From an uncultured delta proteobacterium (lineage in GTDB: Bacteria; Desulfobacterota; SM23-61): a stretch of 64,000 bases of DNA. Positions 44,642 to 64,000 of this stretch are shown here, in pieces. The stretch covers positions 11,237 through 75,236 of the forward strand of contig CAVXFA010000075.1 in the NCBI GenBank assembly GCA_963760605.1, read 5' to 3'. Position 1 is the first letter of the stretch; each line of letters opens with the position of its first letter. Under the pieces are notes generated by a model, which saw nothing but the letters and a program-made list of their open reading frames with translations, ran no database searches and was not told the DNA's origin. The translations under genes were made by a program, and so were the position numbers.

Positions 44642-44652
44642 AATTCAGACGC

Positions 44653-44755
44653 AATGATGGGATATTGGGGATTGGAAAAAGATCTTTCCGTTATATTTAC
44701 CTATGACGAAAAGGATTATAAGAAGATTGAAGACCTCGAGGTTCGAAAACCATGA
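44653..44755 (+). pseudogene. 3'-terminal remnant of a PIN toxin gene (last about 34 codons), homologous to 58177-58278 and 61297-61398.
   Basis: At the nucleotide level, gatgggatattggggattggaaaaagatctttccgtt...gaggttcgaaaaccatga matches the 3' ends of both full-length copies. It marks the start of the accessory island right after the glcF stop. Confidence 0.7.
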
Positions 44756-44949
44756 CATGCCTTAGCCCGAAAATCCCAAAACAATTCCCGAAACCAATCG
44801 GTAGTTTCCGTTACCAACGCCTCACCAGAATTCTCTTCGCCCAGTCTTGACGTCGCTCGGTAGTTTTCTTCAATAGCGTATTTCCGTACCCTGATCCCAC
44901 CCTGCTGCAATAAGCATGCAAAGAAAATAGGCCTGACCCCGCTCGTGTT

Positions 44950-45051
44950 TTCCTGAAATCCGGGTTCGTTTTGCGAAGAACGATAAGGGATTATTACCGT
45001 CCTGGGGTGGATGGATATTTTATTGCTTTCGATGGAAAAACCAAGGATTAG
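44950..45051 (+). pseudogene. 3'-terminal remnant of the GNAT acetyltransferase cassette gene.
   Basis: At the nucleotide level, ttcctgaaatccgggttcgttttgcgaagaacgataagggattattaccgtcctggggtggatggatattttattgctttcgatggaaaaaccaaggattag is identical to the 3' ends of 58731..59162 and 61843..62274. Confidence 0.7.
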
Positions 45052-45139
45052 TATAAAAGGATCATCTCCGAAATAGTTGGCAAGAGCTTGGAGAATTTTA
45101 AGAGAGAAATAACGTTAATCCTGAAAGCTATATTTAAAG

Positions 45140-45190
45140 GGGACGATTCTATTTATTGCAGTCCTCAATTTCGGAAAATAGAACCGTCCC
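45140..45190 (+). repeat. Hairpin junction element copy H1 (15-bp stem, 21-nt loop; one stem mismatch).
   Basis: The sequence is gggacgattctattt-attgcagtcctcaatttcgga-aaatagaaccgtccc. It is preceded by the conserved arm ...gagaattttaagagagaaataacgttaatcctgaaagctatatttaaagg. Confidence 0.7.
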
Positions 45191-45290
45191 GATTTTCCAC
45201 TCCCTGCCGTCGAACTGACTCAATTTTTAAGTCAGCTTCTGGCCATTAGCCTCTTGCCACTGTACCGGCTTTCCTTTTCTGCCGCTCTAA

Positions 45291-46067
45291 TTACTGTTCT
45301 TTCCCTTCGATGATTTGAATAAAATCCACCTCCATATGCTGGTGATGTTCCACACTACTGGGTAATACCCCCAGCACGCTTAATTGCTGAATGAAGTCGA
45401 TACTCTGCAAATAGAAAGGCCCTTCAGGAATGACAATCCCCCAACCCTGAAACATTTTATGGATATTATCCAAGATCGCAACTCCAAGAGGAAAGGTGTA
45501 ATAAGCAGTGGTGGGATTCCAGTACACCATCTGTTCCTCCTGGGATATTTGCAGAACCAGACCTTGATTGAAATACAACCACAAACCTTGCCACTGATTG
45601 GTTTCCCCCGGCGGCGCAGGAGGAATCTGGTTTATAGACAGGGCGTCTATCTTATACATCAAATAGGTGTTGGGGGTTACAAGGATGGGCAAAATGTCTT
45701 TAAACTGACCATTACAACAAAGCATACTCACTGCGGACTCATTGACCCGAGCCTCACCCTCGCCCTTAAACCTTATGTTGTCTTTGATAAGGGTGTCCCC
45801 TACGATGACGTTACCCGTACTTCCATTATCAGGGTTTTGATTGTCTAGATTAAAGCCTGTATGGCCCCAGGCGTGATTCCCAGTAAGGCCATTATCCCAC
45901 TCTTCATTGAATACGACCTCTCCTGGGCTAAAAGCTTTGCCCACCACCGCGCCGACTTCGTTTCCCAGGGTTCCCTGAAATGCAAGCATAAACTTTATGG
46001 AATCATATTCTTTCTTGGGGAGCGGGGGATAGATCATAAAGTCAACCAGCATCTCACCCCACTCCAT
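45291..46067 (-). CDS. Hypothetical protein (258 aa), divergently transcribed from the Hxs cluster.
   Basis: It is a long clean ORF in an AT-rich island. No domain was recognised. Confidence 0.45.
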   Translation of the reverse strand: MEWGEMLVDFMIYPPLPKKEYDSIKFMLAFQGTLGNEVGAVVGKAFSPGEVVFNEEWDNGLTGNHAWGHTGFNLDNQNPDNGSTGNVIVGDTLIKDNIRFKGEGEARVNESAVSMLCCNGQFKDILPILVTPNTYLMYKIDALSINQIPPAPPGETNQWQGLWLYFNQGLVLQISQEEQMVYWNPTTAYYTFPLGVAILDNIHKMFQGWGIVIPEGPFYLQSIDFIQQLSVLGVLPSSVEHHQHMEVDFIQIIEGKEQ

Positions 46068-46348
46068 TGTCCCATCCGCCTTCTTACTCGCCCCTTTAAG
46101 TTCGATACAGGGAACGACAGCAGAACCATCGAGACCCCTAAAGCTTTTTTTAAAAGATACATCAATCCATTAACTTATATAAAAAAGTAGGGCCAGGGGG
46201 AGTTACGGGAAACGAGTGAGAAACCCGTCATGAAAGAATTTACTAAAAGAGATAATTTTGTTCTTGACATTTTATTTTGTAGGTTTATAATGCATACGGA
46301 ATAAAAGGACCAGTGTAATACATCCTCTTGCGTGGAGCGGGGTGGATT

Positions 46349-46618
46349 ATGAAGAGAATATGGAATAAATTAATTTTCCTGCTGTTTGGAATTCTTTCGC
46401 TCATTGGAATTAGCATCTCACCTTCCTTATCCGCAACGCGGTACACCCAGCAGATTACAGAGGTCAAAAAAACAACCCCACTTTTTTTGCAGCTCGGTAG
46501 TGATATGGGTTCCAGACTGGATAACCAAGGGACTTCATTTGCCCAGCATGAATCTCATTATTCCCACACGTCTCACTATTCTCATTCTTCTCATTACTCT
46601 CATTACTCCCGCTACTAG
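46349..46618 (+). CDS. hxsA: His-Xaa-Ser repeat precursor-like peptide (HxsA-like). It has a hydrophobic leader and a C-terminal (H-x-S)x7 repeat.
   Basis: The C-terminus HESHYSHTSHYSHSSHYSHYSRY is made of seven consecutive His-Xaa-Ser triplets. The N-terminus MKRIWNKLIFLLFGILSLIGISIS is hydrophobic. The gene lies directly upstream of two radical SAM/SPASM enzymes. Confidence 0.7.
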   Translation: MKRIWNKLIFLLFGILSLIGISISPSLSATRYTQQITEVKKTTPLFLQLGSDMGSRLDNQGTSFAQHESHYSHTSHYSHSSHYSHYSRY

Positions 46619-46800
46619 TTTTAAGGAAGGGGGGGCAACGTAATCTGCCAATTCAACCTCTGATGCAGGGCTGAATTGTTACAATTTTCCATCGTATCTG
46701 ATTTGTAACCCACCAGGAAAGAGGGAATTGCGATCTAAATCAGCCAGCTAGAGTGGGCACTTGATTTCTGCCGATTTGGAAAACATTGTGACAGACATGA

Positions 46801-47151
46801 ATGGTTGTTATGAAAGAGCAAAGCAAAACGTTAGAAATACGAGTTAGTAAAGCCCTCTATGATAGAGAAGCTATTATCGCGGCTGCTTACGCACTATCTG
46901 GGTTGTGCGGAATCAAAATCGAACCTGCATCTGAGCAGTTTTTAAAAGTGTCATTAGAACCACTTGAACCCCATAATGATTTAGACCTTTCGGAGTTGGA
47001 GCATAAGTTTACGAATGAGCTAATTGATCAACAACTGAGAATTGATCTTGAGAGACGATATGGCCCAATTCGCCAGCTGATTGTACAACATGCCTTCTCT
47101 CCCCTTGAAAATCTCAAGGCCGAGGTCAAGAAAATTGTCGGTCGTGAGTAG
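46801..47151 (+). CDS. hxsD: HxsD-like accessory protein of the His-Xaa-Ser system (tentative).
   Basis: The 116-aa protein sits between the precursor and the rSAM genes. The assignment rests on this context and a general family resemblance. Confidence 0.45.
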   Translation: MVVMKEQSKTLEIRVSKALYDREAIIAAAYALSGLCGIKIEPASEQFLKVSLEPLEPHNDLDLSELEHKFTNELIDQQLRIDLERRYGPIRQLIVQHAFSPLENLKAEVKKIVGRE

Positions 47152-48610
47152 CCGCTATCTGCTCTTACCCTTCCGATTCTGCCGTTTCCCTGGTAAGCCA
47201 GTTCTTTTGGTTAACGAAGTGGGCGAATACATTTTTTTAGATACAGAAGCTTTCGAGAGGATTATCTCTTACCGTCTTGACCGCAGTGAACCGATATTTC
47301 TGGACTTGAAGGGTAAGCACATCCTCACGGACACGGCTGTCACGCCCGTAATCAACCTCCTTTCTACCAAATATAGGACGAAAAAAGCCTTTCTAAAAAC
47401 CTTTACTGCTCTTCATATGATTGTCGTAACACTTCGTTGTAACCACCACTGTAACTACTGTCATGCTTCAAGCCAAGCAGCAGATAGACGCCATTGGGAT
47501 ATGAACCAAGAGACAGCGGAAAATGTGGTCCGAATTATAATGGAAACACCATCTCCGGTAGTCAAAATAGAATTTCAAGGAGGGGAACCACTTCTTAATT
47601 TCGAGATCGTAAAAACTATTGTCCGGGAAGCAAAAAGGATCAATCGACGAAAGGGTAAAGATCTCTCTTTTGTGCTCTGCACTAATCTTACCCTCCTCGA
47701 TAAGCCTACCTTGACATTCCTCAAGAAAGAAAAAATCCTGGTTTCCACGTCGCTAGATGGACCTAAGGAAATCCATGATCGGCACAGGATTATGCGAGAG
47801 GGAGGAAGTAGTTATGATGAATTCATCCATAAACTTAATTACTGCAAGAGTGTATTGGGTCATGAAAGTGTGTCTGCTCTTATGACTGCTACCAAAGATA
47901 GCCTTCCTAACATACAGTCGATTATAGATGAATATGTCAGACTCAATTTTCAGGGCATCTTTTTGCGAAGCCTTAATCCTTACGGTTATGCACGTACTGA
48001 GGCAAATAGGAAAATCTTAGAATATCAAATGGATGAGTTCGTTGAGGCATATAAAAAAGCCTTACTCTATATAATTAAGGTCAACCAAGAAGGAAGGCGT
48101 CTTGTCGAAAATTACGCCACTGTGCTTCTAACAAAAATTCTTACTCCATTTTCCACGGGCTTTGTGGACTTACAATCTCCCACAGGGGCAGGGATAAGTG
48201 GGGCGGTATATAACCATAATGGGGATGTTTATCCTTCTGATGAATCCAGGATGCTGGCCCAGATGGGTGATCGACGATTCTTTATGGGTAATGTAAATAG
48301 GGATTCATACCTATCCATTTTCAAATCTAATGTGCTACATGAACTGATTAAAACTTCCTGTGTAGAAACGCTACCCGGTTGCCATTCATGCGCTCTGCAA
48401 ACCTATTGTGGCGCCGATCCCGTAAGGAATTATGCTACCCAAGGGAACTTAGTCGGGCACCGCCCAACGAGTGATTTCTGTTTCAAACATAGGGAGATAA
48501 TCAGTTTTTTGTTGGACCTCATCGAGCAGGATAATCCAGATACTATTGACGTTTTCTGGTCATGGATAACTAACCGATCCCTCGCTGAGGTAAAAGGTAG
48601 GAACCAATGA
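47144..48610 (+). CDS. hxsB: Radical SAM/SPASM-domain maturase (HxsB-like; anSME-like). The likely start is the GTG at 47144, overlapping the hxsD stop.
   Basis: The CX3CX2C motif is CNHHCNYC. The C-terminal SPASM-like cysteines are in CHSCALQTYCGADP. The start lies in the same frame as ORF 47081..48610. Confidence 0.75.
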   Translation: MSSRYLLLPFRFCRFPGKPVLLVNEVGEYIFLDTEAFERIISYRLDRSEPIFLDLKGKHILTDTAVTPVINLLSTKYRTKKAFLKTFTALHMIVVTLRCNHHCNYCHASSQAADRRHWDMNQETAENVVRIIMETPSPVVKIEFQGGEPLLNFEIVKTIVREAKRINRRKGKDLSFVLCTNLTLLDKPTLTFLKKEKILVSTSLDGPKEIHDRHRIMREGGSSYDEFIHKLNYCKSVLGHESVSALMTATKDSLPNIQSIIDEYVRLNFQGIFLRSLNPYGYARTEANRKILEYQMDEFVEAYKKALLYIIKVNQEGRRLVENYATVLLTKILTPFSTGFVDLQSPTGAGISGAVYNHNGDVYPSDESRMLAQMGDRRFFMGNVNRDSYLSIFKSNVLHELIKTSCVETLPGCHSCALQTYCGADPVRNYATQGNLVGHRPTSDFCFKHREIISFLLDLIEQDNPDTIDVFWSWITNRSLAEVKGRNQ

Positions 48611-49800
48611 GAGAGTTTACCGGGAAGCCAGTGGGCATACTCAAGCCAATTATGGGGATGGTTACTACAAAGTCGTCCGCCAGGAGGGCACAGCAAGTGC
48701 TTTTAGTGTTCCAGCCACGCAATATAGCCCGAAGGCTATTTTCCCGTGTCTCACCTAGTCGTTACACGGCGGCCTGTATGATTTCTGATCACGGTGGCCT
48801 CCCCTTACAAAAGAACATCCCCCATTTGCTCGATTTGTCAGAGGATAATCTCTTTCAATTGCACGATGGCGACATCGTTAAAATAGAGCCCAGCGGCAGG
48901 GTGACTGTGGTTTATGAAGCTAATTCCTTACACAATACTATATTTTTTACGAACATCTGCAATTGCTCATGCGTCATGTGCTCACAGCCTCCGGCCAAGG
49001 ATTCAGAGGACCTCTTGGAGCAGAACCTGATGCTCATTTCCCTACTGGAAAGGCGCAAGGAAAGACATTTGGGGATAACCGGAGGAGAACCTACTATATT
49101 AGCTGAAAACCTTATAAAGTTTATCCAGACGTGCAGGGCGGAATTGCCCAAAACGTCACTAACTTTACTTACCAATGGTAGAAAACTCCAAGATTTCGAG
49201 TTCGCCAGGGCGCTTGTACTTTCTGGATACCCCCGCTTGTTTATGGAGATACCAGTATATGGAGACAATGATACGGAACATGATTCCATAATGGGTGCAA
49301 GTGGGAGCTTCTACGAGACCATACAAGGTCTCCACAACCTTGCACTCTTAAGTCAACCAGTGGGCCTGCGAACAGTACTCCACAGCATGACCATAAAACG
49401 CTTGTGCCAGTACGCCGAATTTGTCTATCGTAACTTACCATTTGTTGTCCAAGTGGCATTCATGGGAATGGAAACTACCGGAGCAGCTAAGGCGAATCTG
49501 GATTGTTTATGGGTAGATCCATATGATTATCGCCATCAACTCGAGTCTGCTGTCAGGTATCTCAATCAAAGAAAGGTGCCAGTTTCAATCTATAATCATC
49601 AACTCTGTACGCTACCTAAAGATTTATGGCCATTTGCCAGGCGGTCCATTAGTACCTGGAAAGAAACTTTCCTGCCACTTTGCGATGAATGCTACGTGAA
49701 GAACTTCTGTTGTGGTATTTTTGGCACGGGCGGAAGGCCTAGCGCCTTTCTCCGTCCCCTTTTCAAGAATGAGCTGCCGAAAGCGTGGCAAGATAACTAG
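48607..49800 (+). CDS. hxsC: Second radical SAM maturase (HxsC-like), translationally coupled to hxsB (ATGA overlap).
   Basis: The CX3CX2C motif lies within NICNCSCVMC. The C-terminus has a Cys cluster CDECYVKNFCCG. Confidence 0.7.
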   Translation: MREFTGKPVGILKPIMGMVTTKSSARRAQQVLLVFQPRNIARRLFSRVSPSRYTAACMISDHGGLPLQKNIPHLLDLSEDNLFQLHDGDIVKIEPSGRVTVVYEANSLHNTIFFTNICNCSCVMCSQPPAKDSEDLLEQNLMLISLLERRKERHLGITGGEPTILAENLIKFIQTCRAELPKTSLTLLTNGRKLQDFEFARALVLSGYPRLFMEIPVYGDNDTEHDSIMGASGSFYETIQGLHNLALLSQPVGLRTVLHSMTIKRLCQYAEFVYRNLPFVVQVAFMGMETTGAAKANLDCLWVDPYDYRHQLESAVRYLNQRKVPVSIYNHQLCTLPKDLWPFARRSISTWKETFLPLCDECYVKNFCCGIFGTGGRPSAFLRPLFKNELPKAWQDN

Positions 49801-49929
49801 CCATTTTTTATAGCAGTAATTTACAAATTCCGGGCAAATAAATAGTCTTTTCCAAGTATAGACCAAAGAAAAATAAACAAATGAGGCCGATTGGCGGTAA
49901 AACTCCAGGAAAACCGAAAGGCTATATAG

Positions 49930-50109
49930 ATGGCAGAGAAACTCGACCGCAAAGAAATAGTCAGCTTTGAGGAGCTTCTGCTAAGCAATGTTATTGAGCA
50001 GGAGGCCTTGGTCAATTTGCTGGAAGCCAAAGGAGTTATCACAAAAGCCGGCCTGCTCGAAGAAATTAAGAATCTCCGAAATAAGCGCAGAAAACTGAGA
50101 AAAGAATGA
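49930..50109 (+). CDS. Small helical hypothetical protein (59 aa) that is absent from the supplied ORF track because it is under 60 aa.
   Basis: It is a clean ATG..TGA ORF encoding MAEKLDRKEIVSFEELLLSNVIEQEALVNLLEAKGVITKAGLLEEIKNLRNKRRKLRKE, lying 20 nt upstream of the HExxH peptidase gene. Confidence 0.4.
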   Translation: MAEKLDRKEIVSFEELLLSNVIEQEALVNLLEAKGVITKAGLLEEIKNLRNKRRKLRKE

Positions 50110-50129
50110 TAATAAAGGCCTAAGAGGCA

Positions 50130-50537
50130 ATGGAGCTGGATAAGGTTTTTACTGAAGTTGAAATTGAAACCCCGTATTTAGAAAACACCCTCAAGAAGGT
50201 GCTTTCAATCATCAATGGGTATATGGATATTTATACCAACGGATTTGGCTCAATTCACGAAGGTCGAATTTTCGGGAATGAAGGGGTGGTTAGCGAGGCG
50301 GGGGATATTTATTTAGACTCAAAACAATTGCAGAGGCATGACGATGATGTGGCGATGGCGATCATTGCCCACGAGCTTGCTCATTATTATCTTGGCCATC
50401 ACATTAAGTCGGGTAGGGAAGCAGAAAACGAGAAAGATGCTGATGACCTTGCAAAACAATGGGGTTTCAATATTGATAAGATGCGACAAATATTTAGATT
50501 AAGAGGTGTCCAAATAGTTGGCTTGGAGAAAGAATGA
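50130..50537 (+). CDS. ImmA/IrrE-like HExxH zinc metallopeptidase (small).
   Basis: The motif AIIAHELAHYYLGHH (HExxH..H) is present in a protein of 135 aa. Confidence 0.55.
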   Translation: MELDKVFTEVEIETPYLENTLKKVLSIINGYMDIYTNGFGSIHEGRIFGNEGVVSEAGDIYLDSKQLQRHDDDVAMAIIAHELAHYYLGHHIKSGREAENEKDADDLAKQWGFNIDKMRQIFRLRGVQIVGLEKE

Positions 50538-50541
50538 GACA

Positions 50542-51099: not shown

Positions 51100-51174
51100 G
51101 AGTCATGAAAGATGGGACTTAATACGACTGAAAATAATAGGGCGCATTATCAAGTTCTTCCTGAAGGAGTGATT

Positions 51175-54724: not shown

Positions 54725-54780
54725 ATAATGACTACCTTAAAATGGGACATTCCGTTAATTTTTTCAAGGAGGATTCCACT

Positions 54781-57078
54781 ATGCCACTTCTCCCTGGAAT
54801 TGTTCAAACGTTGTTTGAGTTAGAGGATAATCCAATTCGGTTCGAGCGTGTGTGCCTCGATTTGTACAAAGACGCCGAGGGAGTCGAATTGGTTCCTACT
54901 TCCCGAACCTGGGATTTAGGCCGAGACGGGCGAAGCATTTCGATTTCGAAAAATGGGACTCTTTTAGGGATCCTTTGTGCAACATTGTCTATCGATATAG
55001 ATGGTAAAGTCGAGGCAGATATTCTTCGCCTCGCCGAAACAACAAATACTAGAGCAATAATATATTCTACATCCCGATCGTTGACGGAACACGCTTGTAA
55101 TGTGCTCGAGGCTAAAATTCGGAAATTGTACCCAGCGGTTAAATCCGTCCGTATTTTGGGTCAAATTCAACTTGTTGCTCTAGCAGAACGCTTCGAAAAT
55201 ACAATTCGTAAACATTATGCGGCAGAGATTAAAATTAGCGAGCAAGCTCTTCTGACTGTTCCCAATGAGCCAGAAAATATCGGGCTTCGTCTTGCCCTAA
55301 TTACTCAAACGGGCGATGATGCTCGAATCCTCCGAACCGAACTAACCAGGCGCCTTGTATTAGAAAGTCTTCATAGCCGAGGCTCCCAGAGCGCCGGTAG
55401 TCTTGCCGTGGCGATTTCAGGGCAACTACACCTTTCACGATCAATGACAACTAGTTACATAACTATTATTATATCATCACTAATCGAAGAGGGACTGGTA
55501 TCGAGTGACAAGGATGGCACAATATGCATTACTCCAAACGGCATAACATTTATAAGTGGGGTCCCAAAAGAGGCCAGTGCGAAATTGTTAGAAGGCCGCA
55601 CCGCAATTCGCAGAGAAATAAAAAGGCTGTCTGGGCATACGCTTACAGAGGAACAGTTTGAACGTCTTTGGGATTACTTCCAAGACGGACTTTCGGAAGT
55701 CTTTTATTCCCATGGAGCTGCTATTGTTCGCATGGTAGGTTCCTTGATCACAGGGGAACGAGGCAAACCAGAGCCAAAAACCTATTTGCTCCTCGAAGAA
55801 GTTGGCAACCACATCGGGTCCTTATTCTCTGACCCCATCCAGGGCGATGAGGTACGGCAGGCCATAATCGACATGTTCTCCGAAAAGGAAAGCGAAGCTT
55901 TTAATTGGCTAACGCAGATTTGCAGCGTATATGTGATGATGTGTTCACTAGGATTTGAGGCTTTAAGTTCTGAACAAATTACAAGAGTTCTCAGAAACTT
56001 CCGTCTTGTCCCAGATACTGACATCATTATTTCATTATTATGCGAGGGAGAAAATAACCATAAAGAGGTTTCACATATTGTTAATGGATGGAGACTCTTG
56101 GGCGGAAAAATTCTAATGTCAACCCCTGTCTTGGAGGAAACGGCTTTTCACGCTTGGATTAGTGAACACGATTATGTCCAAATGTGGGAACAGCTTGATC
56201 AAATATCAGATTCAGAAGCCTATCATTTAATTGAAAATGCATTCGTTCGCTCGTTTAGAATTTTATCAAGAGAAAATACGAGTAGGAGGTACTGGAACCA
56301 ATACATCAACCAGTATCGCGGTGAATCAGAACGTGATTACAGTCGTGTAATGCTAATTTTAAGAGAAGATTATGGGTTTGATAGGCTACCTGATGCCGAG
56401 GAGAATTACCAAAATTTTCCCAATAAAGTCAGGATTTTTTTGGCTCAGAAATTGGCCGAAAATATTGGAATAAGTTTTGAAGATTTAAGTTTTAAGATGC
56501 ATGACAAAAGTAGACGTGATGGATCTCTTTTTGGCTCCGTGCTTAGAGCAAGGGATGCATCACGACGGTCAGCGATACAATCTACTACGATTATTCTTTC
56601 CTCTTCGAGATTACTAAAACAGGCAGATCAAGCCTTCCGAAGTGAGCTTGGTGAGCCAGATGCAGTAGTCTCTACGGCCGCAGTGGGGTGTCTGTTGACT
56701 TTAACTCCGGGAGTACTTATGGGGATGGGGACCCTTCGTGAGGTACTTTTCGACTTAGGTTTAGCCACACGGCTAACGCCCATGCAGAGATATGCTTATC
56801 GGCTGATCACAGCATCCGGAGAATTTGACCTTCCTTGGTCCAGACGGGTAACTCTACAGAGGGAATTAGGCGAAAGACTCCTTTCGGACGCAAGAGCAAC
56901 TGGCGACCCTGTGCCTAAGGTCATTGAAAGGGTAATGAAATCTGAAGATCCGGAATTTTCCGTAAAGATGATTGTAAAAGCCTTGGACAATATGGCAGTC
57001 ACGCCCAAAACTGAAAAGGAGCTGCAAAGACTTAGAAAGGAAGTCAAAATATTGGAAGAGAAATTAAAAGCCAGGTAA
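54781..57078 (+). CDS. Large hypothetical protein (about 765 aa) with an N-terminal Mrr-cat-like (restriction-endonuclease-like) motif.
   Basis: FERVCLDLYKDAEGVELVPTSRTWDLGRDGRSIS fits the Mrr_cat pattern (F-E-x-L..G..V..T..D.G.D). The AGGAGG RBS lies 7 nt before the ATG at 54781. No P-loop was seen. The remainder is helical and of unknown function. Confidence 0.5.
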   Translation: MPLLPGIVQTLFELEDNPIRFERVCLDLYKDAEGVELVPTSRTWDLGRDGRSISISKNGTLLGILCATLSIDIDGKVEADILRLAETTNTRAIIYSTSRSLTEHACNVLEAKIRKLYPAVKSVRILGQIQLVALAERFENTIRKHYAAEIKISEQALLTVPNEPENIGLRLALITQTGDDARILRTELTRRLVLESLHSRGSQSAGSLAVAISGQLHLSRSMTTSYITIIISSLIEEGLVSSDKDGTICITPNGITFISGVPKEASAKLLEGRTAIRREIKRLSGHTLTEEQFERLWDYFQDGLSEVFYSHGAAIVRMVGSLITGERGKPEPKTYLLLEEVGNHIGSLFSDPIQGDEVRQAIIDMFSEKESEAFNWLTQICSVYVMMCSLGFEALSSEQITRVLRNFRLVPDTDIIISLLCEGENNHKEVSHIVNGWRLLGGKILMSTPVLEETAFHAWISEHDYVQMWEQLDQISDSEAYHLIENAFVRSFRILSRENTSRRYWNQYINQYRGESERDYSRVMLILREDYGFDRLPDAEENYQNFPNKVRIFLAQKLAENIGISFEDLSFKMHDKSRRDGSLFGSVLRARDASRRSAIQSTTIILSSSRLLKQADQAFRSELGEPDAVVSTAAVGCLLTLTPGVLMGMGTLREVLFDLGLATRLTPMQRYAYRLITASGEFDLPWSRRVTLQRELGERLLSDARATGDPVPKVIERVMKSEDPEFSVKMIVKALDNMAVTPKTEKELQRLRKEVKILEEKLKAR

Positions 57079-57413
57079 ATACCGACAAATACAAGTGGGA
57101 AGGAAATGAGCGCTTATCACTTTCAATCCGTAATTTTCAACGCCCCAACATAGTTCCCCTTATTGATTTGTAACTGTTACCAAAGGTCGCGTTTAAAAAG
57201 CTAGGCGTCAAAACCCGGGTTTTTTTCAACAAGCATTCGTGAAGGGTTGAGTAGTCTCTCACTGCGGAGGGCAGGGATTAAGGTTAAGCCACCAAAAGCT
57301 TTTCAACTTTCACTTTGTCCGGGCTGATAAAAACTGTCTTCTGGTGGGAAAAGGTCACGAAGCCGGGCCCGGCCCCTTTAGGTTTATGTAGATTCTTGAC
57401 GGGCAGGGTAAAG

Positions 57414-57468
57414 GGGACGGTCCTATTTATTGCAGTCCTCAATTTCAAAAAATTGACCCGCCCCGATT
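57414..57468 (+). repeat. Hairpin junction element copy H2 (degenerate variant).
   Basis: The sequence gggacggtcctattt-attgcagtcctcaatttc-aaaaaattgacccgcccc shares the 5' stem and loop start. The 3' half is diverged. Confidence 0.5.
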
Positions 57469-57578
57469 TTCACCAGTTTTCACGGGGGGCGTCGGGCAGC
57501 CGATTTCCTACCGCGGCCACTCATATTTTAGAAATTTATGTTCCTCCGACAATTTCCTTTTAAAGGAATAATATTTAA

Positions 57579-57607
57579 TTGACTACTTTTAAATAAAGTA
57601 GTAATAT
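57579..57607 (+). promoter_or_regulatory. Sigma70-like promoter with an embedded operator palindrome for the AbrB-PIN TA cassette.
   Basis: The -35 box is TTGACT and the -10 box is TAATAT, with a 17-nt spacer. The inverted repeat ACTACTTTtaaatAAAGTAGT spans the spacer. Confidence 0.55.
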
Positions 57608-57641
57608 AAAATGAATGTCAGAAAAAGGAGGTGGATTTGCC

Positions 57642-57875
57642 ATGCAGACTGTCAAGGTATTGCCCAAAGGGCAAATTACCCTTCCCAAACAAGTTAGAAA
57701 AAAGCTTAAGATTGGGGTGGGAGATCGGTTGCTCCTCGAGGAAGACGAAGAAAAAATCGTTCTGAAAAAAGGGAAAACGATATTCGATTATATCGGAAGC
57801 CTGCCCAGTCTGGGAATGTCTACTGAAAAGATGCGCGAAAAAGCTGTCGGGGAGGCAGCCAAGGAAAATGACTAA
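57642..57875 (+). CDS. AbrB/SpoVT-type antitoxin (VapB-like).
   Basis: The swapped-hairpin DNA-binding N-terminus is MQTVKVLPKGQITLPKQVRKKL. The RBS aaggagg is present. The gene overlaps the PIN gene by 8 nt. Confidence 0.75.
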   Translation: MQTVKVLPKGQITLPKQVRKKLKIGVGDRLLLEEDEEKIVLKKGKTIFDYIGSLPSLGMSTEKMREKAVGEAAKEND

Positions 57876-58278
57876 AGCGTTCATTGACACCAGCGTGATT
57901 CTCAGGCTGCTGATCAAGGATGACCGGGCAAAAGCCAGATCTAGCGAAAAACTGTTGAAAGAAGCAGAAAAGCGGGGACTGATCCTGTATTTATTGCCGG
58001 TAGCCATAATGGAGACAGTATGGGTGCTGGAAAAAATTTATAAATTCGAGAGAAAAACCATAAGGGAAATCATAGAAGCCATCCTTAATACCCCGCAGTT
58101 GAAGATTGAGATGGAGACCGTTTTTAGGAAGGCCATAAGGAACTACGAAGAAAAGAATATAAAATTTGCGGATGCCATGATGGGATACTGGGGATTGGAA
58201 AAAGATCTTTCCGTTATGTTTACCTATGACGAAAAGGATTATAAGAGGATTGAAGGCCTCGAGGTTCGAAGACCATGA
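57868..58278 (+). CDS. vapC: PIN-domain toxin VapC (copy 1).
   Basis: The PIN motif FIDTSVIL with acidic residues is present. The gene is paired with the upstream antitoxin. Confidence 0.8.
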   Translation: MTKAFIDTSVILRLLIKDDRAKARSSEKLLKEAEKRGLILYLLPVAIMETVWVLEKIYKFERKTIREIIEAILNTPQLKIEMETVFRKAIRNYEEKNIKFADAMMGYWGLEKDLSVMFTYDEKDYKRIEGLEVRRP

Positions 58279-58546
58279 CCTGCCTGAGCCCGAAAATCCC
58301 AAAGCAATTCCCGAAACCAATCGGTAGTTTCCGTTACCAACGCCTCACCAGAATTCTCTTCGCCCAGTCTTGACGTCGCTCGGTAGTTTTCTTCAATGGC
58401 ATATTTCCGTAACCTCTCCCCTCCCCCCCGGAATAAGCAGGCAAAGAAAATAGAGCTGACCCCGCTGGTGGTTGGCAAAAGCTTGGAAAATTTTAGGAGA
58501 GAGAAAACGTTAATCATGAAAGCTATATTTAAAGGGGACGTTAAAG

Positions 58547-58597
58547 GGGACGGTTCTGTTTATTGCAGTCCTCAATTTCGGAAAATAGTACCGCCCC
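58547..58597 (+). repeat. Hairpin junction element copy H3.
   Basis: The sequence is gggacggttctgttt-attgcagtcctcaatttcgga-aaatagtaccgcccc. It is preceded by the conserved arm ...cttggaaaattttaggagagagaaaacgttaatcatgaaagctatatttaaagg. Confidence 0.7.
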
Positions 58598-58730
58598 AAT
58601 TTTCCAAAGGTCAAACTTTCTCTCAGCGTCCCAGCCTGGCCGCGTACGGGACAAAGCAAACAAGTCGGATTTCCTTGGACTCCTGCAGGCCTGCGGGACA
58701 AAAGGAAATTTCCAATCGGGCATTTTGCAA

Positions 58731-59162
58731 ATGAAAATCGAGCTACGAGAAGACCTCGCTCCGGATCCGGATTTCTATTACCATCAACAATTCAAAATCT
58801 ATGACGAACCCTATTTGATTTGGGGCCGAGAAACATGGAAGGCAGCGCTCAGCGCATGCAGCGTCTATCAGATCGAAGCAGATGGGAGATACGCCGGAGA
58901 CCTGTTATTGGAGGACCAGAGGAAAGGCACCAAGTACATCCTTGACTTCGGCCTTTTGCCCGAGTATCAAGGGAAGGGGGTGGGGAAAGCGGTTGTTGAG
59001 CAGTTCAAGAAATTGGGCGGGAAATTCACTGCTGTCACACGAAAGGAAACTCTTGGTTTCTTCCTGAAATCCGGGTTCGTTTTGCGAAGAACGATAAGGG
59101 ATTATTACCGTCCTGGGGTGGATGGATATTTTATTGCTTTCGATGGAAAAACCAAGGATTAG
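58731..59162 (+). CDS. GNAT-family N-acetyltransferase (copy 1).
   Basis: Motif A is QGKGVGKAVVEQF. The gene is 143 codons long. Confidence 0.7.
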   Translation: MKIELREDLAPDPDFYYHQQFKIYDEPYLIWGRETWKAALSACSVYQIEADGRYAGDLLLEDQRKGTKYILDFGLLPEYQGKGVGKAVVEQFKKLGGKFTAVTRKETLGFFLKSGFVLRRTIRDYYRPGVDGYFIAFDGKTKD

Positions 59163-59277
59163 TATAAAAGGATCATCTCCGAAATAGTTGGCAAGAGCTT
59201 GGAGAATTTTAAGAGAGAAAAAACGTTAGTCATGAAAGCTATAAGCCTTCGGCCTGATGACCTTGATTTTGTTTAAA

Positions 59278-59328
59278 GGGGGCGGGTCTATTTATTGCAG
59301 TCCTCAATTTCGGAAAATAGAACCGTCC
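59278..59328 (+). repeat. Hairpin junction element copy H4.
   Basis: The sequence is ggggcgggtctattt-attgcagtcctcaatttcgga-aaatagaaccgtccc. The conserved arm upstream carries a 35-bp insertion. Confidence 0.65.
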
Positions 59329-59605
59329 CGATTTTCCACTGGCCATTAACCTCTTGTCACTGTGCCGGAGAAAGAACAACCGAATCCGTGTCCCCCTCAT
59401 ACCCATTATTTCATTCCCGTCGAAAACCCGCGAATGCGCGGGAAACCAGCCATAAAAAGAACGGCCGTTTAAAAATTTCTCCCCGCCAATGGATCAAAAT
59501 CGAGGGATTTTATCAAATGCAGAGCCGTCACTCCATAGCCCTTTTCACACCTTACACAAAAAATCAATAATCAAGACTTGAATCCGGATATGAACATTAA
59601 TCTAA

Positions 59606-60019
59606 TTATGGACGTGCCTCAAGGGGTAACTTCGCGAGAATCTGATTATAAATTTCGTGACTGATCTGAAGGGCCTCTTCAGCTTCTTGGTTTGTAGGTT
59701 CTTCCGTCCCTCCGGGGTAGCGGAATTTCCAAGCGTACTCAGTGAGGGGAGCGGCCTTATCAACTAAATCCTTCAAAGTGGGCTCTATTTTGACACATTG
59801 TCGCCCGATTTCCTCCAGACTATGGGTTTTGCGAAACGGAATATCATGCCAGGCCAGAAATCCCTTAAGCGCCTTTTCGATTGCCTGCTGGCAGTGAAAA
59901 ACCACATCTTCAAGCAGTGGAGGCGCCGCCGAAAGTCCGTGTTCAGCACTCCTTAGGTCCTTCTGGGCGTTAACAAGCCAACCGCGAGTGTCTTCCATGC
60001 GAACAGGATCAGGCTGCAT
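59606..60019 (-). CDS. HEPN-domain protein (toxin of a HEPN/MNT pair).
   Basis: The motif HCQQAIEKALKGFLAWHDIPFRKTHSLEEI matches the HEPN signature. The likely start MQPDP at 60019 overlaps the MNT stop by 11 nt. Confidence 0.7.
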   Translation of the reverse strand: MQPDPVRMEDTRGWLVNAQKDLRSAEHGLSAAPPLLEDVVFHCQQAIEKALKGFLAWHDIPFRKTHSLEEIGRQCVKIEPTLKDLVDKAAPLTEYAWKFRYPGGTEEPTNQEAEEALQISHEIYNQILAKLPLEARP

Positions 60020-60374
60020 AAAGCAACCTCCCTTCCGATATGACAGTAAATGGGAGCGAGGCACGGAGGTGAAGTCGGCGATCAAAGGCATCCTGAGTCC
60101 AAACCAGAACATCTGCAGCTATACCCGTACCCCGGAGTACTTCATAGGCTAAACGACTTCGTCTTCGCTCAGGGGGCGCAGACTCGGGGACAACGACCAT
60201 CAGGTCATAGTCACTGTCGCCACCAAAATCACTTCTGGCCCGGGAGCCAAAAAGATAGATACGTTCAGGAAGATATGCGTCAATTAAACGACACACAATC
60301 TCAGCCAGTTTCTTATCGTCCAGGCTTTTTACAGCGTCTTTCCCATCCACTCCATTATGATTCATAAGATCCAC
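60009..60374 (-). CDS. Minimal nucleotidyltransferase (MNT), the antitoxin partner of the HEPN protein.
   Basis: The nucleotidyltransferase motif GSRARSDFGGDSDYDL is present. Confidence 0.75.
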   Translation of the reverse strand: MDLMNHNGVDGKDAVKSLDDKKLAEIVCRLIDAYLPERIYLFGSRARSDFGGDSDYDLMVVVPESAPPERRRSRLAYEVLRGTGIAADVLVWTQDAFDRRLHLRASLPFTVISEGRLLYAA

Positions 60375-60515
60375 CTTTTCTATTATACCTCAGCCAATCC
60401 CATGCCACCAGAATAAGTTAACTTGTGTGATATCCCCGAGCTCTCTTTCTTCTTTGCCCATTATGACCCGGAAGGTTTCGCCCGGAAGACGGAATTATGG
60501 TAAATGGTGGTAAAT

Positions 60516-60566
60516 GGGACGGCTCTATTTATTGCAGTCCTCAATTTCGGAAAATAGAACCGTCCC
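60516..60566 (+). repeat. Hairpin junction element copy H5.
   Basis: The sequence is gggacggctctattt-attgcagtcctcaatttcgga-aaatagaaccgtccc. It is followed by the gattttcaccaattttcacgggggg arm shared with H2. Confidence 0.7.
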
Positions 60567-60698
60567 GATTTTCACCAATTTTCACGGGGGGTGTCGGTCA
60601 GCCAGATCCCTACCGTGACTTCTCATATTGGAAAATTATGATATTACGGATGTTTTAAGATCGTCCGGACAATATATTTTTAGAGGAATAATATTTAA

Positions 60699-60727
60699 TT
60701 GACTACTTTTCAATAAAGTAGTAAAAT
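60699..60727 (+). promoter_or_regulatory. Promoter/operator of the second AbrB-PIN cassette.
   Basis: The -35 box TTGACT and -10 box TAAAAT are separated by 17 nt. The palindrome ACTACTTTtcaatAAAGTAGT is present. Confidence 0.5.
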
Positions 60728-60761
60728 AAAGCCAATGTCAGAAAAAGGAGGCGGATTTGCC

Positions 60762-60995
60762 ATGCAGACTGTCAAGGTATTGCCCAAAGGGCAGATTACC
60801 CTTCCCAAACAAGTTAGAAAAAAGCTTAAGATCGATGTGGGAGATCGGTTGCTCGTTGAGGAAGACGAAGAAAAAATCGTTCTGAAAAAAGGGAAAACAA
60901 TATTCGATTATATCGGAAGCCTGCCCAATCTGGGAATGTCTACTGAAAAGATGCGCGAAAAAGCTGTCGGGGAGGCAGCCAAGGAAAATGACTAA
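60762..60995 (+). CDS. AbrB/SpoVT-type antitoxin (copy 2).
   Basis: It is about 95 percent identical to 57642..57875. Confidence 0.75.
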   Translation: MQTVKVLPKGQITLPKQVRKKLKIDVGDRLLVEEDEEKIVLKKGKTIFDYIGSLPNLGMSTEKMREKAVGEAAKEND

Positions 60996-61398
60996 AGCGT
61001 TCATTGACACCAGCGTGATTCTCAGGCTGCTGATCAAGGATGACCCGGTGAAAGCCAGATCTTGCGAAAAACTGTTGAAAGAAGCAGAACAGCGGGGACT
61101 GATTCTATATTTATTACCGGTAGCCATAATGGAGACTGTATGGGTGTTGGAAAAAATTTATAAATTCGAGAGAAAAACCATAAGGGAAATCATAGAAGCC
61201 ATCCTTAATACCCCGCAGTTGAAGATTGAGATGGAGACCGTTTTTAGGAAGGCCATAAGGAACTACGAAGAAAAGAATATAAAATTTGCGGATGCCATGA
61301 TGGGATACTGGGGACTGGAAAAAGATCTTTCCATTATATTTACCTATGACGAAAAGGATTATAAGAAGATTGAAGGCCTCGAGGTTCGAAAACCATGA
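60988..61398 (+). CDS. vapC: PIN-domain toxin VapC (copy 2).
   Basis: It is about 93 percent identical to 57868..58278. Confidence 0.8.
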   Translation: MTKAFIDTSVILRLLIKDDPVKARSCEKLLKEAEQRGLILYLLPVAIMETVWVLEKIYKFERKTIREIIEAILNTPQLKIEMETVFRKAIRNYEEKNIKFADAMMGYWGLEKDLSIIFTYDEKDYKKIEGLEVRKP

Positions 61399-61658
61399 CA
61401 GGCCCTAGTCCGAAAATCCCAAAGCAATTCCCAAAACCAATCGGTAGTTTCCGTTACCAACGCCTCACCTGAATTCTCTTCGCCCAGTCTTGACGTCGCT
61501 CGGTAGTTTTCTTCAATAGCGTATTTCCATAACCTGTCCCTGCCCCCTGGAATAAGCAGGCAAAGAAAATAGACCCCGCTGGTGGTTGGCAAAAGCTTGG
61601 AAAATTTTAAGAGAGAAATAACGTTAATCATGAAAGCTATATTTAAAGGTATTTAAAG

Positions 61659-61709
61659 GGGACGGTTCTATTTATTGCAGTCCTCAATTTCGGAAAATAG
61701 AACCGTCCC
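61659..61709 (+). repeat. Hairpin junction element copy H6 (perfect consensus).
   Basis: The sequence is gggacggttctattt-attgcagtcctcaatttcgga-aaatagaaccgtccc. The upstream tatttaaagg is tandemly duplicated. Confidence 0.75.
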
Positions 61710-61842
61710 AATTTTCCAAAGGTCAAACTTTCTCCCAGCATCCCACCCTAGCCGTGTACGGGACAAAGTAGACAAGTCGGATTTCCTTGGACTCCGGTAG
61801 GCCTGCGGGACAAAAGGGAATTTCCAATCGGGCATTTTGCAA

Positions 61843-62274
61843 ATGAAAATCAAGTTACGACAAGACCTCGCTCCAGACCCGGATTTCTATTACCATCAAC
61901 AGTTTAAAATCTATCACGAGCCCTATTTGATTTGGGACAAAGAAACATGCGAGTTGGCGCTCAGCGCATGCAGCGTCTATCAGATCGAAGTAGATGGGAG
62001 ATACGCCGGAGACCTGTTATTGGAGGACCAGAGGGAAGGTACCAAGTACATCCTTGACTTCGGCCTTTTGCCCGAGTATCAGGGGAAGGGGTTGGGAAAA
62101 GCGGTTGTTGAGCAGTTCAACAAAATGGGCGGGAAATTCACTGCTGTCACGCGAAAGGAAACTCTTGGTTTTTTCCTGAAATCCGGGTTCGTTTTGCGAA
62201 GAACGATAAGGGATTATTACCGTCCTGGGGTGGATGGATATTTTATTGCTTTCGATGGAAAAACCAAGGATTAG
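61843..62274 (+). CDS. GNAT-family N-acetyltransferase (copy 2).
   Basis: It is about 93 percent identical to 58731..59162. Confidence 0.7.
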   Translation: MKIKLRQDLAPDPDFYYHQQFKIYHEPYLIWDKETCELALSACSVYQIEVDGRYAGDLLLEDQREGTKYILDFGLLPEYQGKGLGKAVVEQFNKMGGKFTAVTRKETLGFFLKSGFVLRRTIRDYYRPGVDGYFIAFDGKTKD

Positions 62275-62362
62275 TATAAAAGGATCATCTCCGAAATAGT
62301 TGGCAAGAGCTTGGAGAATTTTAAGAGAGAAAAAACGTTAATCATGAAAGCTATATTTAAAG

Positions 62363-62413
62363 GGGACGGGTCTATTTATTGCAGTCCTCAATTTCGGAAA
62401 ATAGAACCGTCCC
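62363..62413 (+). repeat. Hairpin junction element copy H7.
   Basis: The sequence is gggacgggtctattt-attgcagtcctcaatttcgga-aaatagaaccgtccc, with the conserved upstream arm. Confidence 0.7.
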
Positions 62414-62474
62414 AATTTCCCATTGTTATCGATTTATTGCCACCTGGGACACGACGTCCCCATTTCCATTCATT

Positions 62475-63158
62475 TCACTTTGTCTTTTTTAGTTCGTCAA
62501 ATTCGTCTTTTGGCATATTCATTATGGTGTCCGCTGCTTCGTTTAATTTCTGGACCGACTCGTTCATCTCAGCGCGGCCCCGTTCCATTAATGCCATTTC
62601 TACCTCGAAAAGACGTTGAAATATGGCGTGAGCTTTCGTCTTGTTCGGCTCCACTCCTTCGCCACCCAGGGAATAGTTTCTCGCTAACGCGAGCAGGTTC
62701 ACCCGTGCCATAGGCGCTAACCATCCGCCACTTCTTCCAACTCTCACATACCATTCTATGGCTTTCTCTTCATTTTGTTGAACACCTTCCCCCTTGAGAT
62801 ACATATCCGCCAGTGTTAGCGCGGCATAAAAGTCTCCCCTTTCGGCCCCTAGGCGATACCACTTGGCAGCTTCGACGAGGTTCTTCTTGACGCCTTCCCC
62901 GTGTTGGTAACAGAACCCAAGCTGAAACGGAGCATAAGCATCGCCTTGGTTGACTTTGTCTTTCCATGATTGAATCATTTCGGCTGTTGCGCCTTCTGCG
63001 CGAGAAAGGGATGGTATAAAAAGGATCATCCAGCAAATCAGCCCAAGAATAAGAAATCGTATCATTTCTTTGAGGTTTATATTTGGGACCAAAGCTCGCC
63101 ACTTAGAACATGTATCAGTGTTCATTTCAGTCCTCCTATTTTTATTATTGTTACGCAC
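62475..63158 (-). CDS. Sel1-repeat (TPR-like) protein with an N-terminal membrane/signal segment.
   Basis: Repeated Sel1-like units are present (GDAYAPFQLGFCYQHGEGVKKNLVEAAKWY, GDFYAALTLADMYLKGEGV). Confidence 0.6.
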   Translation of the reverse strand: MRNNNKNRRTEMNTDTCSKWRALVPNINLKEMIRFLILGLICWMILFIPSLSRAEGATAEMIQSWKDKVNQGDAYAPFQLGFCYQHGEGVKKNLVEAAKWYRLGAERGDFYAALTLADMYLKGEGVQQNEEKAIEWYVRVGRSGGWLAPMARVNLLALARNYSLGGEGVEPNKTKAHAIFQRLFEVEMALMERGRAEMNESVQKLNEAADTIMNMPKDEFDELKKTK

Positions 63159-63269
63159 AACGACCAGGCTAACCCGCCGGGAACCGGACGGCGCGAAGGA
63201 CGTCGATCTGAGGCCACACTCAACTCGCCGGCCGGTTCCCGGTCAGGTTGAGCGTCTTGATGTTTCGCT

Positions 63270-63788
63270 TCATTTGAGGCTGATTTTCAATCCGTCTTCT
63301 TTCATTTGTAGCAACGCTTCTGCATTGCCACGAGCATCATCAACAGGATGATGGGTATGCTTCGTTTTTCGCAGGTGCTTGAAGTTGGTGAATGCGTCCT
63401 TCACGAGGCCTTTGTAAAGCGAGCCTAGATTGGACGAGCTGTGCCCGAAAGGATTAGTGCCAAGGAAATGATGAAAATACCAATTGATGAATTGCCAATC
63501 GAACCCATTGTTATCGGAGATGAAGAACGGACGCCCGCTGCTGTTGGCCTCGATCCAGGAGTTGAATTGATCCATGACGGTTTTGGGGTCTGCAAACTGG
63601 AGCGTTTCCTCGCGGGTGAATCCGCTGACGGCGAGCGCCTCGGGGAGCCATTTGTCGGAAATTGGCTTCAATTTACCGCAAAACGACTTTTGGAGCGATG
63701 GTTCGACGACGATGGCACCGAAGCAGATCATCGAGTAGTCGCCCGGTATCGGACCATCGGATTCGACATCGATCATGATGTAGCTCAT
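63270..63788 (-). CDS. DEDDh-family 3'-5' exonuclease domain protein.
   Basis: The Exo I motif MIDVESDG is present, with Exo II/III-like blocks (FISDNNGFD, HHPVDDARGNA). Confidence 0.6.
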   Translation of the reverse strand: MSYIMIDVESDGPIPGDYSMICFGAIVVEPSLQKSFCGKLKPISDKWLPEALAVSGFTREETLQFADPKTVMDQFNSWIEANSSGRPFFISDNNGFDWQFINWYFHHFLGTNPFGHSSSNLGSLYKGLVKDAFTNFKHLRKTKHTHHPVDDARGNAEALLQMKEDGLKISLK

Positions 63789-63818
63789 GCGATATCCTGT
63801 ATTTAAAGTATTTAAAGG

Positions 63819-63869
63819 GGACGGTTCTATTTATTGCGGTCCGCAATTTCGGAAAATAGAACCGTCCCA
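63819..63869 (+). repeat. Hairpin junction element copy H8 (compensated loop variant).
   Basis: The sequence is gggacggttctattt-attgcggtccgcaatttcgga-aaatagaaccgtccc. The upstream tatttaaag is tandemly duplicated. Confidence 0.7.
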
Positions 63870-64000
63870 ATTTTCACTGCATGGATCGCCACAGCCGTAC
63901 GGGATGGGGCCGTTGTGTCCAAGATTTCTTTATTACCTTTGTCCGACAGGTGCTCTCTTACTTCGTTATTCTTGTTATCGATTTATTGCCACCTGGGATG

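Follow-up and report, generated by a model that had tools for sequence, protein, structure and literature searches.

A candidate new family of hairpin repeats at the module joints of a strain-variable island in a Syntrophaceae-like deltaproteobacterium

The 64,000-nt stretch of DNA analysed here (the window; positions 11,237 to 75,236 of contig CAVXFA010000075.1, assembly GCA_963760605.1) originates from an uncultured delta proteobacterium and harbours, downstream of glcF, an accessory island in which eight copies of a 51-nt hairpin repeat are located between small gene modules. The repeat fits no known repeat class cleanly and, judged by its sequence, appears to represent a previously undescribed family. 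It is favoured here, though only tentatively, as a new family of small non-autonomous hairpin repeats, which would provide portable homology for duplication, deletion and swapping of modules. As far as visible from the available sequences, the repeat seems to be confined to a single island of a Syntrophaceae-like deltaproteobacterium, inserted where glcF ends. Gain and loss affect the repeat as a whole and are independent of the neighbouring genes. The make-up of the island is mosaic when strains are compared, one and the same core having different neighbours on either side, and the repeat copies drift without compensation. An earlier note on this DNA had compared the arrangement to an integron cassette array; the hairpins are, however, very probably not integron attC sites.

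Structure and copies of the hairpin repeat

Repeat finding and alignment placed the hairpin starts at 45140, 57414, 58547, 59279, 60516, 61659, 62363 and 63818 (copies c1 to c8), all of which are on the + strand. A 20-nt probe from the loop matched eight times versus 0.02 matches expected by chance, so that the eight + strand copies reported in the earlier note are real; six of its positions were accurate, while those for c4 and c8 (59278 and 63819) were each off by one. No ninth copy, intact or degenerate, was found on either strand of the whole 64 kb with a 13-copy nhmmer profile (--max, filters off). All copies share a core of ~66 nt, composed of (TA)TTTAAAGG, a 15-bp stem, a 21-nt loop and RATTTTC(C)A. 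The stem-loop pattern of the 51-nt hairpin, GGGACGGTTCTATTT-N21-AAATAGAACCGTCCC, is exact only at 61659 (c6) and 63818 (c8), the two copies for which the perfect hairpin described before holds, and the remaining six window copies have 1–4 stem mismatches. The stem is continuous, and perfect in c6, c8 and the copy of the related contig L008. Within the loop (ATTG-CAGTCCT-CAAT-TTCGGA), a 4-bp mini-stem is accompanied by a 6-nt 3' bulge (TTCGGA), which represents the only asymmetry of the structure.

The loop is conserved to the same degree as the stem. Folding of either DNA strand and of the RNA gave the expected structure, the z-scores of the best copies ranging from -5 to -6.8. Covariation, in contrast, lends no support to the fold, as stem substitutions in the known copies are almost never compensated: pairing is kept in 90.7 % of cells, no different from shuffled data, and most substitutions disrupt a pair. 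Copy c2 and the copy of the related contig L013 are visibly decaying. Upstream of the core, a 57-nt arm (GTTGGCAARAGCTTGGARAATTTTAAGAGAGAAAWAACGTTAATCATGAAAGCTATA) is present in five of the eight copies (c1, c3, c4, c6 and c7), always following PIN or GNAT, and together with the core forms a long form of ~125–133 nt; the conserved element of ~115 bp claimed before is thus shared by all copies with respect to the 66-nt core only. All copies have one orientation, whatever strand the neighbouring genes use, and are located in intergenic joints between compact accessory modules.

The individual copies differ in detail. Copy c1 (core 45133..45198, +; hairpin 45140-45190) has one stem mismatch and an arm at 45076-45132. 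Copy c2 (core 57409..57471, +; hairpin 57414-57464), with GGTAAAGG as its left boundary, lacks an arm and is decayed by four uncompensated stem mismatches. The long form of c3 (58471..58605, +) comprises an arm (58471-58527), a 12-nt tandem duplication (58529-58552) and the hairpin (58547-58597), that of c4 (59187..59337, +) an arm (59187-59243), a 29-nt insert between arm and core and the hairpin (59279-59329). Copy c5 (core 60499..60573, +; hairpin 60516-60566) is located 5' of MNT, a gene on the minus strand; it lacks an arm, and 9 nt (GGTAAATGG) are duplicated at 60499-60517. In the long form of c6 (61585..61717, +), the arm (61585-61641) is followed by a 10-nt tandem duplication (61640-61659) and the perfect hairpin (61659-61709), and the arm motif TTGGAAAATT pairs with AATTTTCCAA located 3' of the hairpin. 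The long form of c7 (62299..62420, +; arm 62299-62355, hairpin 62363-62413) shares its 5'-stem variant with c4 and differs from it at the 3' end, as expected of a hybrid core. Copy c8 (core 63799..63875, +; perfect hairpin 63818-63868), 11–22 nt 5' of the start codon of a minus-strand exonuclease gene, has a 9-nt tandem duplication (63799-63816) and a loop variant (GCGGTCCGC) lengthening the mini-stem.

Perfect and independent tandem duplications of 9–12 nt are therefore located exactly at the 5' foot of the hairpin in four of the eight copies (c3, c5, c6 and c8). The paralogues c3 and c6 have different foot duplications, and the orthologous copy L009a has none; possible causes are slippage or enzymatic staggered nicking. 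Directly 3' of c7 follows motif m2 (TTGTTATCGATTTATTGCCACCTGGGACACGACGT; 62423..62463, +), further copies of which are at 63971-63998 and in the related contig L009 (2604-2639). Motif m2 is located directly 3' of a whole core (c7), of a half core (L009) and possibly of a decayed core (window end), and may, with its small GGGAC...GTCCC hairpin, be a second kind of junction element. A protein-coding nature of arm and core was rejected, since an antisense open reading frame (ORF) of 90–92 amino acids is frame-broken between copies and without family match; the three open frames of the core, used as queries in a protein search, gave no match either.

A strain-variable island downstream of glcF

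The window represents chromosomal DNA, with smc, ftsY and glcDEF among the genes present. The closest relatives of its GlcF are metagenome proteins (94 % and ≤83 % identity), and named relatives belong to metagenome-assembled genomes (MAGs) designated 'Deltaproteobacteria' and 'Syntrophaceae bacterium'. From the glcF stop codon on to the window end, the GC content drops from 0.52 to 0.44. In L015, a 95 %-identical relative, homology stops 22 nt before the glcF stop and different genes follow downstream, and in relatives whose GlcF is 78 % identical, glcF is followed by ordinary core genes. Based on this GC drop, the divergence of L015 and the core genes behind glcF in the 78 % relatives, the region from 44.6 to 64 kb is a strain-variable, low-GC accessory island beginning at the glcF stop codon.

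Following c2, the order of elements is AbrB-PIN, c3, GNAT, c4, HEPN-MNT (minus strand), c5, AbrB-PIN, c6, GNAT, c7, Sel1 together with an exonuclease (both minus strand) and c8. The intervals between c2 and c8 are compact (0.7–1.5 kb, 1–2 genes each) and contain toxin-antitoxin (TA), GNAT and defence-type cargo; the cargo assignments made from the letters alone (AbrB/MazE-PIN, GNAT, HEPN/MNT, Sel1 and RNase_T-type exonuclease) were right. The proposal that each module is followed by the element did not hold, since the 12.2 kb between c1 and c2 contain at least 11 genes and no hairpin copy, and Sel1 and exonuclease share one interval with no copy between them.

Copies c2-c4 and c5-c7 constitute one duplicated block of ~3.1 kb (91.2 % identity over 1950 nt) with a core at each end. 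Copy 1 of the block (57407..59336, +) contains a core, AbrB (57642-57875), PIN (57868-58278), an arm-core, GNAT (58731-59162) and a further arm-core; copy 2 (60509..62420, +) has the same order with AbrB at 60762-60995, PIN at 60988-61398 and GNAT at 61843-62274. Directly 3' of glcF, the remnant of a third PIN-GNAT unit (44648..45062, +) was detected, in which the PIN 3' end and its downstream region (44648-44947) are joined to the GNAT 3' end (44945-45062). Because the block is duplicated and c1 resides in this deleted remnant, the eight copies represent only ~4–5 independent contexts.

Comparison with related strains

For comparison, seven short contigs of close relatives, derived from metagenomes or MAGs, were used, L008 and L009 having been retrieved by a metagenome scan, and L012, L013, L019 and L020 via GNAT homologues of >80 % identity. 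A scan of species-representative genomes yielded chance 20-mers only, and the loop 21-mer was found in only two JGI metagenome contigs (L008 and L009), both with island-type contexts, for which reason the family looks array-specific rather than genome-wide. In total, ~15 copies are known, all in the same orientation relative to shared genes. In L003, which belongs to the MAG of an uncultured member of the Clostridia, 27 nt (2908-2934) match the loop and the start of the 3' stem exactly; this match is located in an apparently coding region and is probably due to chance, even though its extension past the 20-nt probe is unlikely (~3e-4).

Across the ~15 copies, the core always has the same boundaries, whereas its flanks differ on both sides, amounting to at least eight left and at least eight right contexts. 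The AbrB leader flank is joined to three different left neighbours (c2, c5 and L013), and the sequence GNAT-arm-core is followed by one of three right neighbours (X region, m2 or GNAT193). Modules adjoining cores in the relatives further include GNAT193, a Tag glycosylase, a histidine phosphatase and a small secreted protein.

The order PIN-GNAT-X exists in three states, with the element at both junctions (window), at the first junction only (L009) or at neither, L019 having no arm and no hairpin at the PIN-GNAT or the GNAT-X junction. It follows that the hairpins are not the limits of cassettes captured independently. Comparison of c1 with L009 and L019 revealed a clean 133-nt indel (45071-45203) with both flanks identical (CATCTCCG/CTGCCG..., the slash here and below marking the junction) and with neither terminal inverted repeats nor a target-site duplication. 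Many strain differences represent deletions with breakpoints off the cores: GNAT left breakpoints are near -125, -110, -45, -20 and +50, and the Tag gene is cut to different extents in L012 and L008. L008 and L009, on the other hand, differ by a Tag module with an end exactly at TCG/TATTTAAAGG. In the more distant L020 (88.5 % nucleotide identity of GNAT), the GNAT gene is flanked by two diverged cores, the 3' one of which starts 1 nt past the GNAT stop codon, has no arm and contains the c8-type loop GCGGTCCGC. The joints of the L015 genes are without hairpin sites.

Relation to integron attC sites

The attC sites of integrons are defined by R/L boxes, AAC...GTT triplets, an unpaired central spacer and extrahelical bases, and clusters of attC sites lacking a nearby integrase (CALINs) are common (PMC4889954). 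In attC, the 5' end carries R'' (RYYYAAC) and the 3' end R' (GTTRRRY), the AAC and GTT triplets pair at the foot of the folded site, and the extrahelical bases belong to the L box. The island resembles such clusters in several respects: palindromic sites on the same strand and <4 kb apart alternate with compact, largely promoter-less or TA-type modules (PMC4889954), the sites are very similar within the array, the array content varies between strains, and the 21-nt loop falls in the range of the attC variable terminal structure (20–100 nt). With their spacing of 0.7–1.5 kb, c2-c8 are within the CALIN spacing rule (at least two same-strand sites <4 kb apart), which counts only for true attC sites; a complete integron has, in addition, an adjacent intI with the extra domain.

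The identification of the hairpins as canonical attC sites had to be abandoned, however, because box consensus, triplet order and stem architecture all fail. R/L boxes and R''/R' boxes are missing, the hairpin has GTT in its 5' and AAC in its 3' half, which is the reverse of attC, and the 15-bp stem is uninterrupted, with neither an unpaired central spacer nor extrahelical bases. No RYYYAAC...GTTRRRY pair (50–160 nt spacing) encloses any of the eight hairpins on either strand, and a relaxed attC-like scan combined with folding ranked only 63155-63253 and none of the eight hairpins. In the earlier note, no intI, attI or canonical GTTRRRY core had been evident in the window. Among the ORFs of the 64 kb scanned against Pfam (≥50 amino acids in the 44.6–64 kb island, ≥150 amino acids upstream), no tyrosine (PF00589) or serine recombinase and no Y1 transposase domain was found, whole or fragmentary. 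The orphan proteins (258 amino acids, 778 amino acids and the P63C protein) had no match suggesting a recombinase in Pfam, NCBIfam, PADLOC, PHROGs or PDB, and none of the related contigs encodes a recombinase. Further differences to integrons are that the site itself behaves as an indel, that the same gene order occurs without sites, and that the modules are divided about equally between the two strands.

The single-copy region 63155-63254, located between the exonuclease and Sel1 genes, forms a GC-rich imperfect palindrome of ~90–100 nt (-29.9 kcal/mol, z -3.8). Its minus strand reads GCTCAAC...GTTGTGC with an inner GTTAGCC. Under relaxed criteria, no better attC-like candidate exists in the window, and the exonuclease may be a stray integron-type cassette with a lone attC.

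Relation to other repeat and RNA classes

Rfam yielded no match at gathering threshold over 64 kb and only chance-level matches (E ≤5) over 57–64 kb, by which a known RNA family was rejected. Plasmids, phages and viral contigs contain no match to the repeat, and a literature search for the repeat sequence or for integrons in Syntrophaceae retrieved nothing relevant. None of the eight hairpins was reported by a terminator scan (GC-rich stem, loop of 3–8 nt, ≥5 T within 8 nt directly after the stem), their loop being 21 nt long and only 4 T following the stem. An origin of the hairpin from back-to-back inverted repeats of insertion sequences (IS) was rejected, since the ends of the IS4-like and IS1595 elements of the window are unrelated to the stem.

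Repetitive extragenic palindromes (REPs) are imperfect palindromes of 20–40 nt with a conserved 5' GTAG, which are associated with a REP-flanked RAYT gene and of which tens to hundreds are dispersed, frequently as inverted pairs. Miniature inverted-repeat transposable elements (MITEs) possess terminal inverted repeats, target-site duplications and a matching full-length IS. The present repeat resembles REP/BIME, ERIC, RUP and Correia elements as a short, non-coding intergenic palindrome with decaying copies and presence/absence polymorphism, able to act as homology for rearrangement and as RNA hairpin. Unlike REPs and MITEs, it has a much longer hairpin (51 nt) with a conserved structured loop, a single, direct orientation and no GTAG 5' tetranucleotide, and no Y1 domain was found among the window ORFs scanned. 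Terminal inverted repeats and a target duplication are likewise lacking at the indel (a subterminal 10-nt inverted repeat was found in c3 and c6 only), the IS ends of the window are unrelated, and the copies are not dispersed, the adjacent core genome (1–44 kb) having none and each metagenome only few.

In palindrome-associated transposable elements (PATEs) of the IS200/IS605 type, hairpins are located near both ends and insertion occurs 3' of a fixed target of 4–5 nt. Shared with these are the absence of inverted terminal repeats and target duplications, the subterminal hairpin and the strand-specific orientation, while the present repeat has one hairpin instead of two, no conserved tetra- or pentanucleotide target and no TnpA/TnpB gene nearby. 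The pdif modules of Acinetobacter plasmids are TA and resistance modules flanked by XerC/D sites, each a 28-bp duplex (11-6-11) of alternating orientation. There, too, small accessory modules including TA pairs are bounded by short conserved sites with no adjacent dedicated recombinase; in the island, in contrast, 15-bp arms are 21 nt apart and always in direct orientation.

Proposed role of the repeat and alternative explanations

The repeat copies would act mainly as portable direct-repeat homology, with unequal or inter-strain homologous recombination duplicating, deleting and swapping the modules between them; flank shuffling, the block duplication and the hybrid-looking core c7 point to such a role in exchange. 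The initial spread may have been brought about by a hairpin-recognising enzyme acting in trans and encoded outside the window, and a weak two-way transcription barrier is a possible secondary role. Several points weigh against this explanation. The terminal inverted repeats and target duplications of classical MITEs are lacking, as are the GTAG and the high copy number of REPs. The ~15 known copies keep a single orientation whatever the gene strand, the 44 kb of core genome are free of copies and the loop 21-mer occurs in two metagenome contigs only. The GNAT gene between two cores in L020, one of them 1 nt past the stop codon, resembles a cassette of ORF plus site, and the foot duplications in half of the window copies hint at nicking of this place by an enzyme. 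The cores of c1, c6, c8 and L008, which are at unrelated positions, are 95–98 % alike versus 91 % for the carrier blocks, and just one clean filled/empty pair is available.

Possible, though doubtful, is a cassette system independent of IntI, with the core as the site of a dedicated recombinase encoded elsewhere; the site would probably be used as a folded single strand, with modules leaving and entering at the hairpin's 5' foot (around TATTTAAAGG), and the array would be integron-like but differ in site and enzyme. In its fuller and slightly more doubtful version, a recombinase or nuclease of Syntrophaceae-like Desulfobacterota, encoded elsewhere, would recognise the folded 51-nt hairpin with its conserved structured loop, cut at its 5' foot and exchange 0.7–1.5-kb modules from one array to another. 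Such a system would account for apparently array-restricted repeats in one orientation independent of gene strand, for the compact intervals of 1–2 genes with TA, GNAT and defence-type cargo, and for constant core boundaries amid at least eight left and at least eight right contexts. The end of the L008/L009 Tag module difference exactly at the 5' foot, where small duplications recur, the core-flanked GNAT of L020 with one core abutting the stop codon, a loop as conserved as the stem with an allele (GCGGTCCGC) common to c8 and L020, and the rarity of the core 21-mer in metagenomes also agree with it. On the other hand, no recombinase is encoded in the 64 kb or any related contig, the same gene order occurs without any site in L019, and the site itself behaves as an indel. 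The 12-kb stretch and several joints (exonuclease/Sel1 and those of the L015 genes) are without sites, many breakpoints are away from cores, the copies decay uncompensated, and about half of the modules are in either orientation. A genuine CALIN with divergent attC sites and an intI beyond the window end is very improbable: layout and cargo are like those of sedentary integrons, one separate attC-like palindrome is present (63155-63254) and integrase-less CALINs are common (PMC4889954), but the conserved triplets are in the wrong order, R/L boxes, unpaired central spacer and extrahelical-base architecture are missing, no RYYYAAC...GTTRRRY pair surrounds any hairpin, and the window contains neither intI nor a fragment of it.

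Unlikely as well is a relic of single-strand transposition (HUH/Y1; IS200/IS605- or RAYT-type), in which the long form, as a palindrome-associated element, would have been moved in trans by a TnpA-like enzyme. Neither terminal inverted repeats nor a target duplication are found at the single clean insertion, the hairpin is subterminal and ends ~13 nt before the right end of the indel, and the orientation is strictly uniform; moreover, the + strand of the island has a positive GC skew, which in our reading would place it on the lagging-strand template. This explanation is weakened by one hairpin per unit as compared to one at each IS200/IS605 end, by two independent left junctions of the long form without common target motif (CTCCG/AAATA versus CCGCT/GGTG), by the lack of a Y1 transposase domain among the window ORFs scanned against Pfam and of a GTAG-type 5' tetranucleotide. 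Ordinary intrinsic terminators, repeated merely through block duplication, are slightly less likely than such a relic, notwithstanding a strong RNA hairpin, short T runs following on both strands (AATTTTC on +, CTTTAAAT on -) and the location of several copies 3' of + strand genes (PIN and GNAT). With a 21-nt loop and 4 T, none of the eight copies passes the terminator scan, c5 and c8 are located 5' of minus-strand genes, and the HEPN-MNT module already has a conventional terminator. Duplication alone is insufficient, because the core including its loop is identical beside unrelated genes in different strains (L008, L012 and L020).

The cassette-array interpretation of the earlier note is partly supported, by the variable low-GC island, the hairpins at module joints, the single orientation and the changing neighbours of the core in related contigs; the attC identity is not supported. 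Its fallback, a 'different, undescribed recombination or terminator element family', comes closer to the evidence than attC, although the hairpins seem not to define cassettes (L019 and L009). To our knowledge, integrons are the only well-understood system building arrays of promoter-less cassettes via folded single-strand sites. If a second, unrelated hairpin marks cassette-like joints, this could mean that cassette capture was solved in parallel by anaerobes of a poorly sampled lineage; alternatively, it could illustrate how a simple portable repeat in combination with homologous recombination mimics the integron layout, which would call for caution with layout-based CALIN predictions. Either way, the repeat could serve as a handy marker of accessory-gene flux in uncultured syntrophs.

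Further features of the window

The 12.2-kb interval between c1 and c2 contains genes for a 258-amino-acid orphan, a His-Xaa-Ser radical-SAM (Hxs) system, a SprT-like protein and a PLD nuclease, followed by those for an IS1595 transposase, a P63C protein, a methyltransferase with a BglII-like restriction enzyme and a 778-amino-acid orphan. The Hxs system (46801-49800) consists of HxsD (TIGR03976, E 8e-19) followed by two radical-SAM/SPASM proteins. The 778-amino-acid protein (54742-57078), encoded directly upstream of c2 and beside the methyltransferase and the BglII-like restriction enzyme, had no match in Pfam, NCBIfam, PADLOC, PHROGs or PDB sequences. Between c4 and c5, the minus-strand HEPN-MNT module (59606..60374; HEPN 59606-60112, MNT 60009-60374) has its own terminator-like hairpin (CCCGCG-N4-CGCGGG followed by TTTT; 59420-59442, minus strand), and its MNT matches the candidate defence family PDC-S09. 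The minus-strand interval between c7 and c8 (62475..63788) encodes the Sel1-repeat protein (62475-63158) and the DEDDh/RNase_T exonuclease (63270-63788), the latter matching the PADLOC 'Effector exonuclease' model PDLC00753 (E 3e-38).

A stretch of ~100 nt located 3' of PIN (58295-58400; ~44770-44875; 61415-61520) is nearly identical in all three copies, while its flanks are 84–92 % identical. It contains the direct repeat CGGTAGTTT(C/T)C and is probably non-coding, because the antisense ORF of 90–92 amino acids is frame-broken between copies. No tRNA or tmRNA gene was detected anywhere in the window, and hence no such attachment site. At the opposite end of the window, smc (4-3508) seems to be split into overlapping ORFs (4-2025 and 1802-3508), for which a frameshift or a sequencing error is a possible reason. 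A complete IS4-like element (11106-12430), located in a low-GC patch, encodes a transposase with DUF4372 and DDE_Tnp_1 domains and is bounded by perfect terminal inverted repeats of 18 bp (CAGTAGTGTCCCAACGTT).

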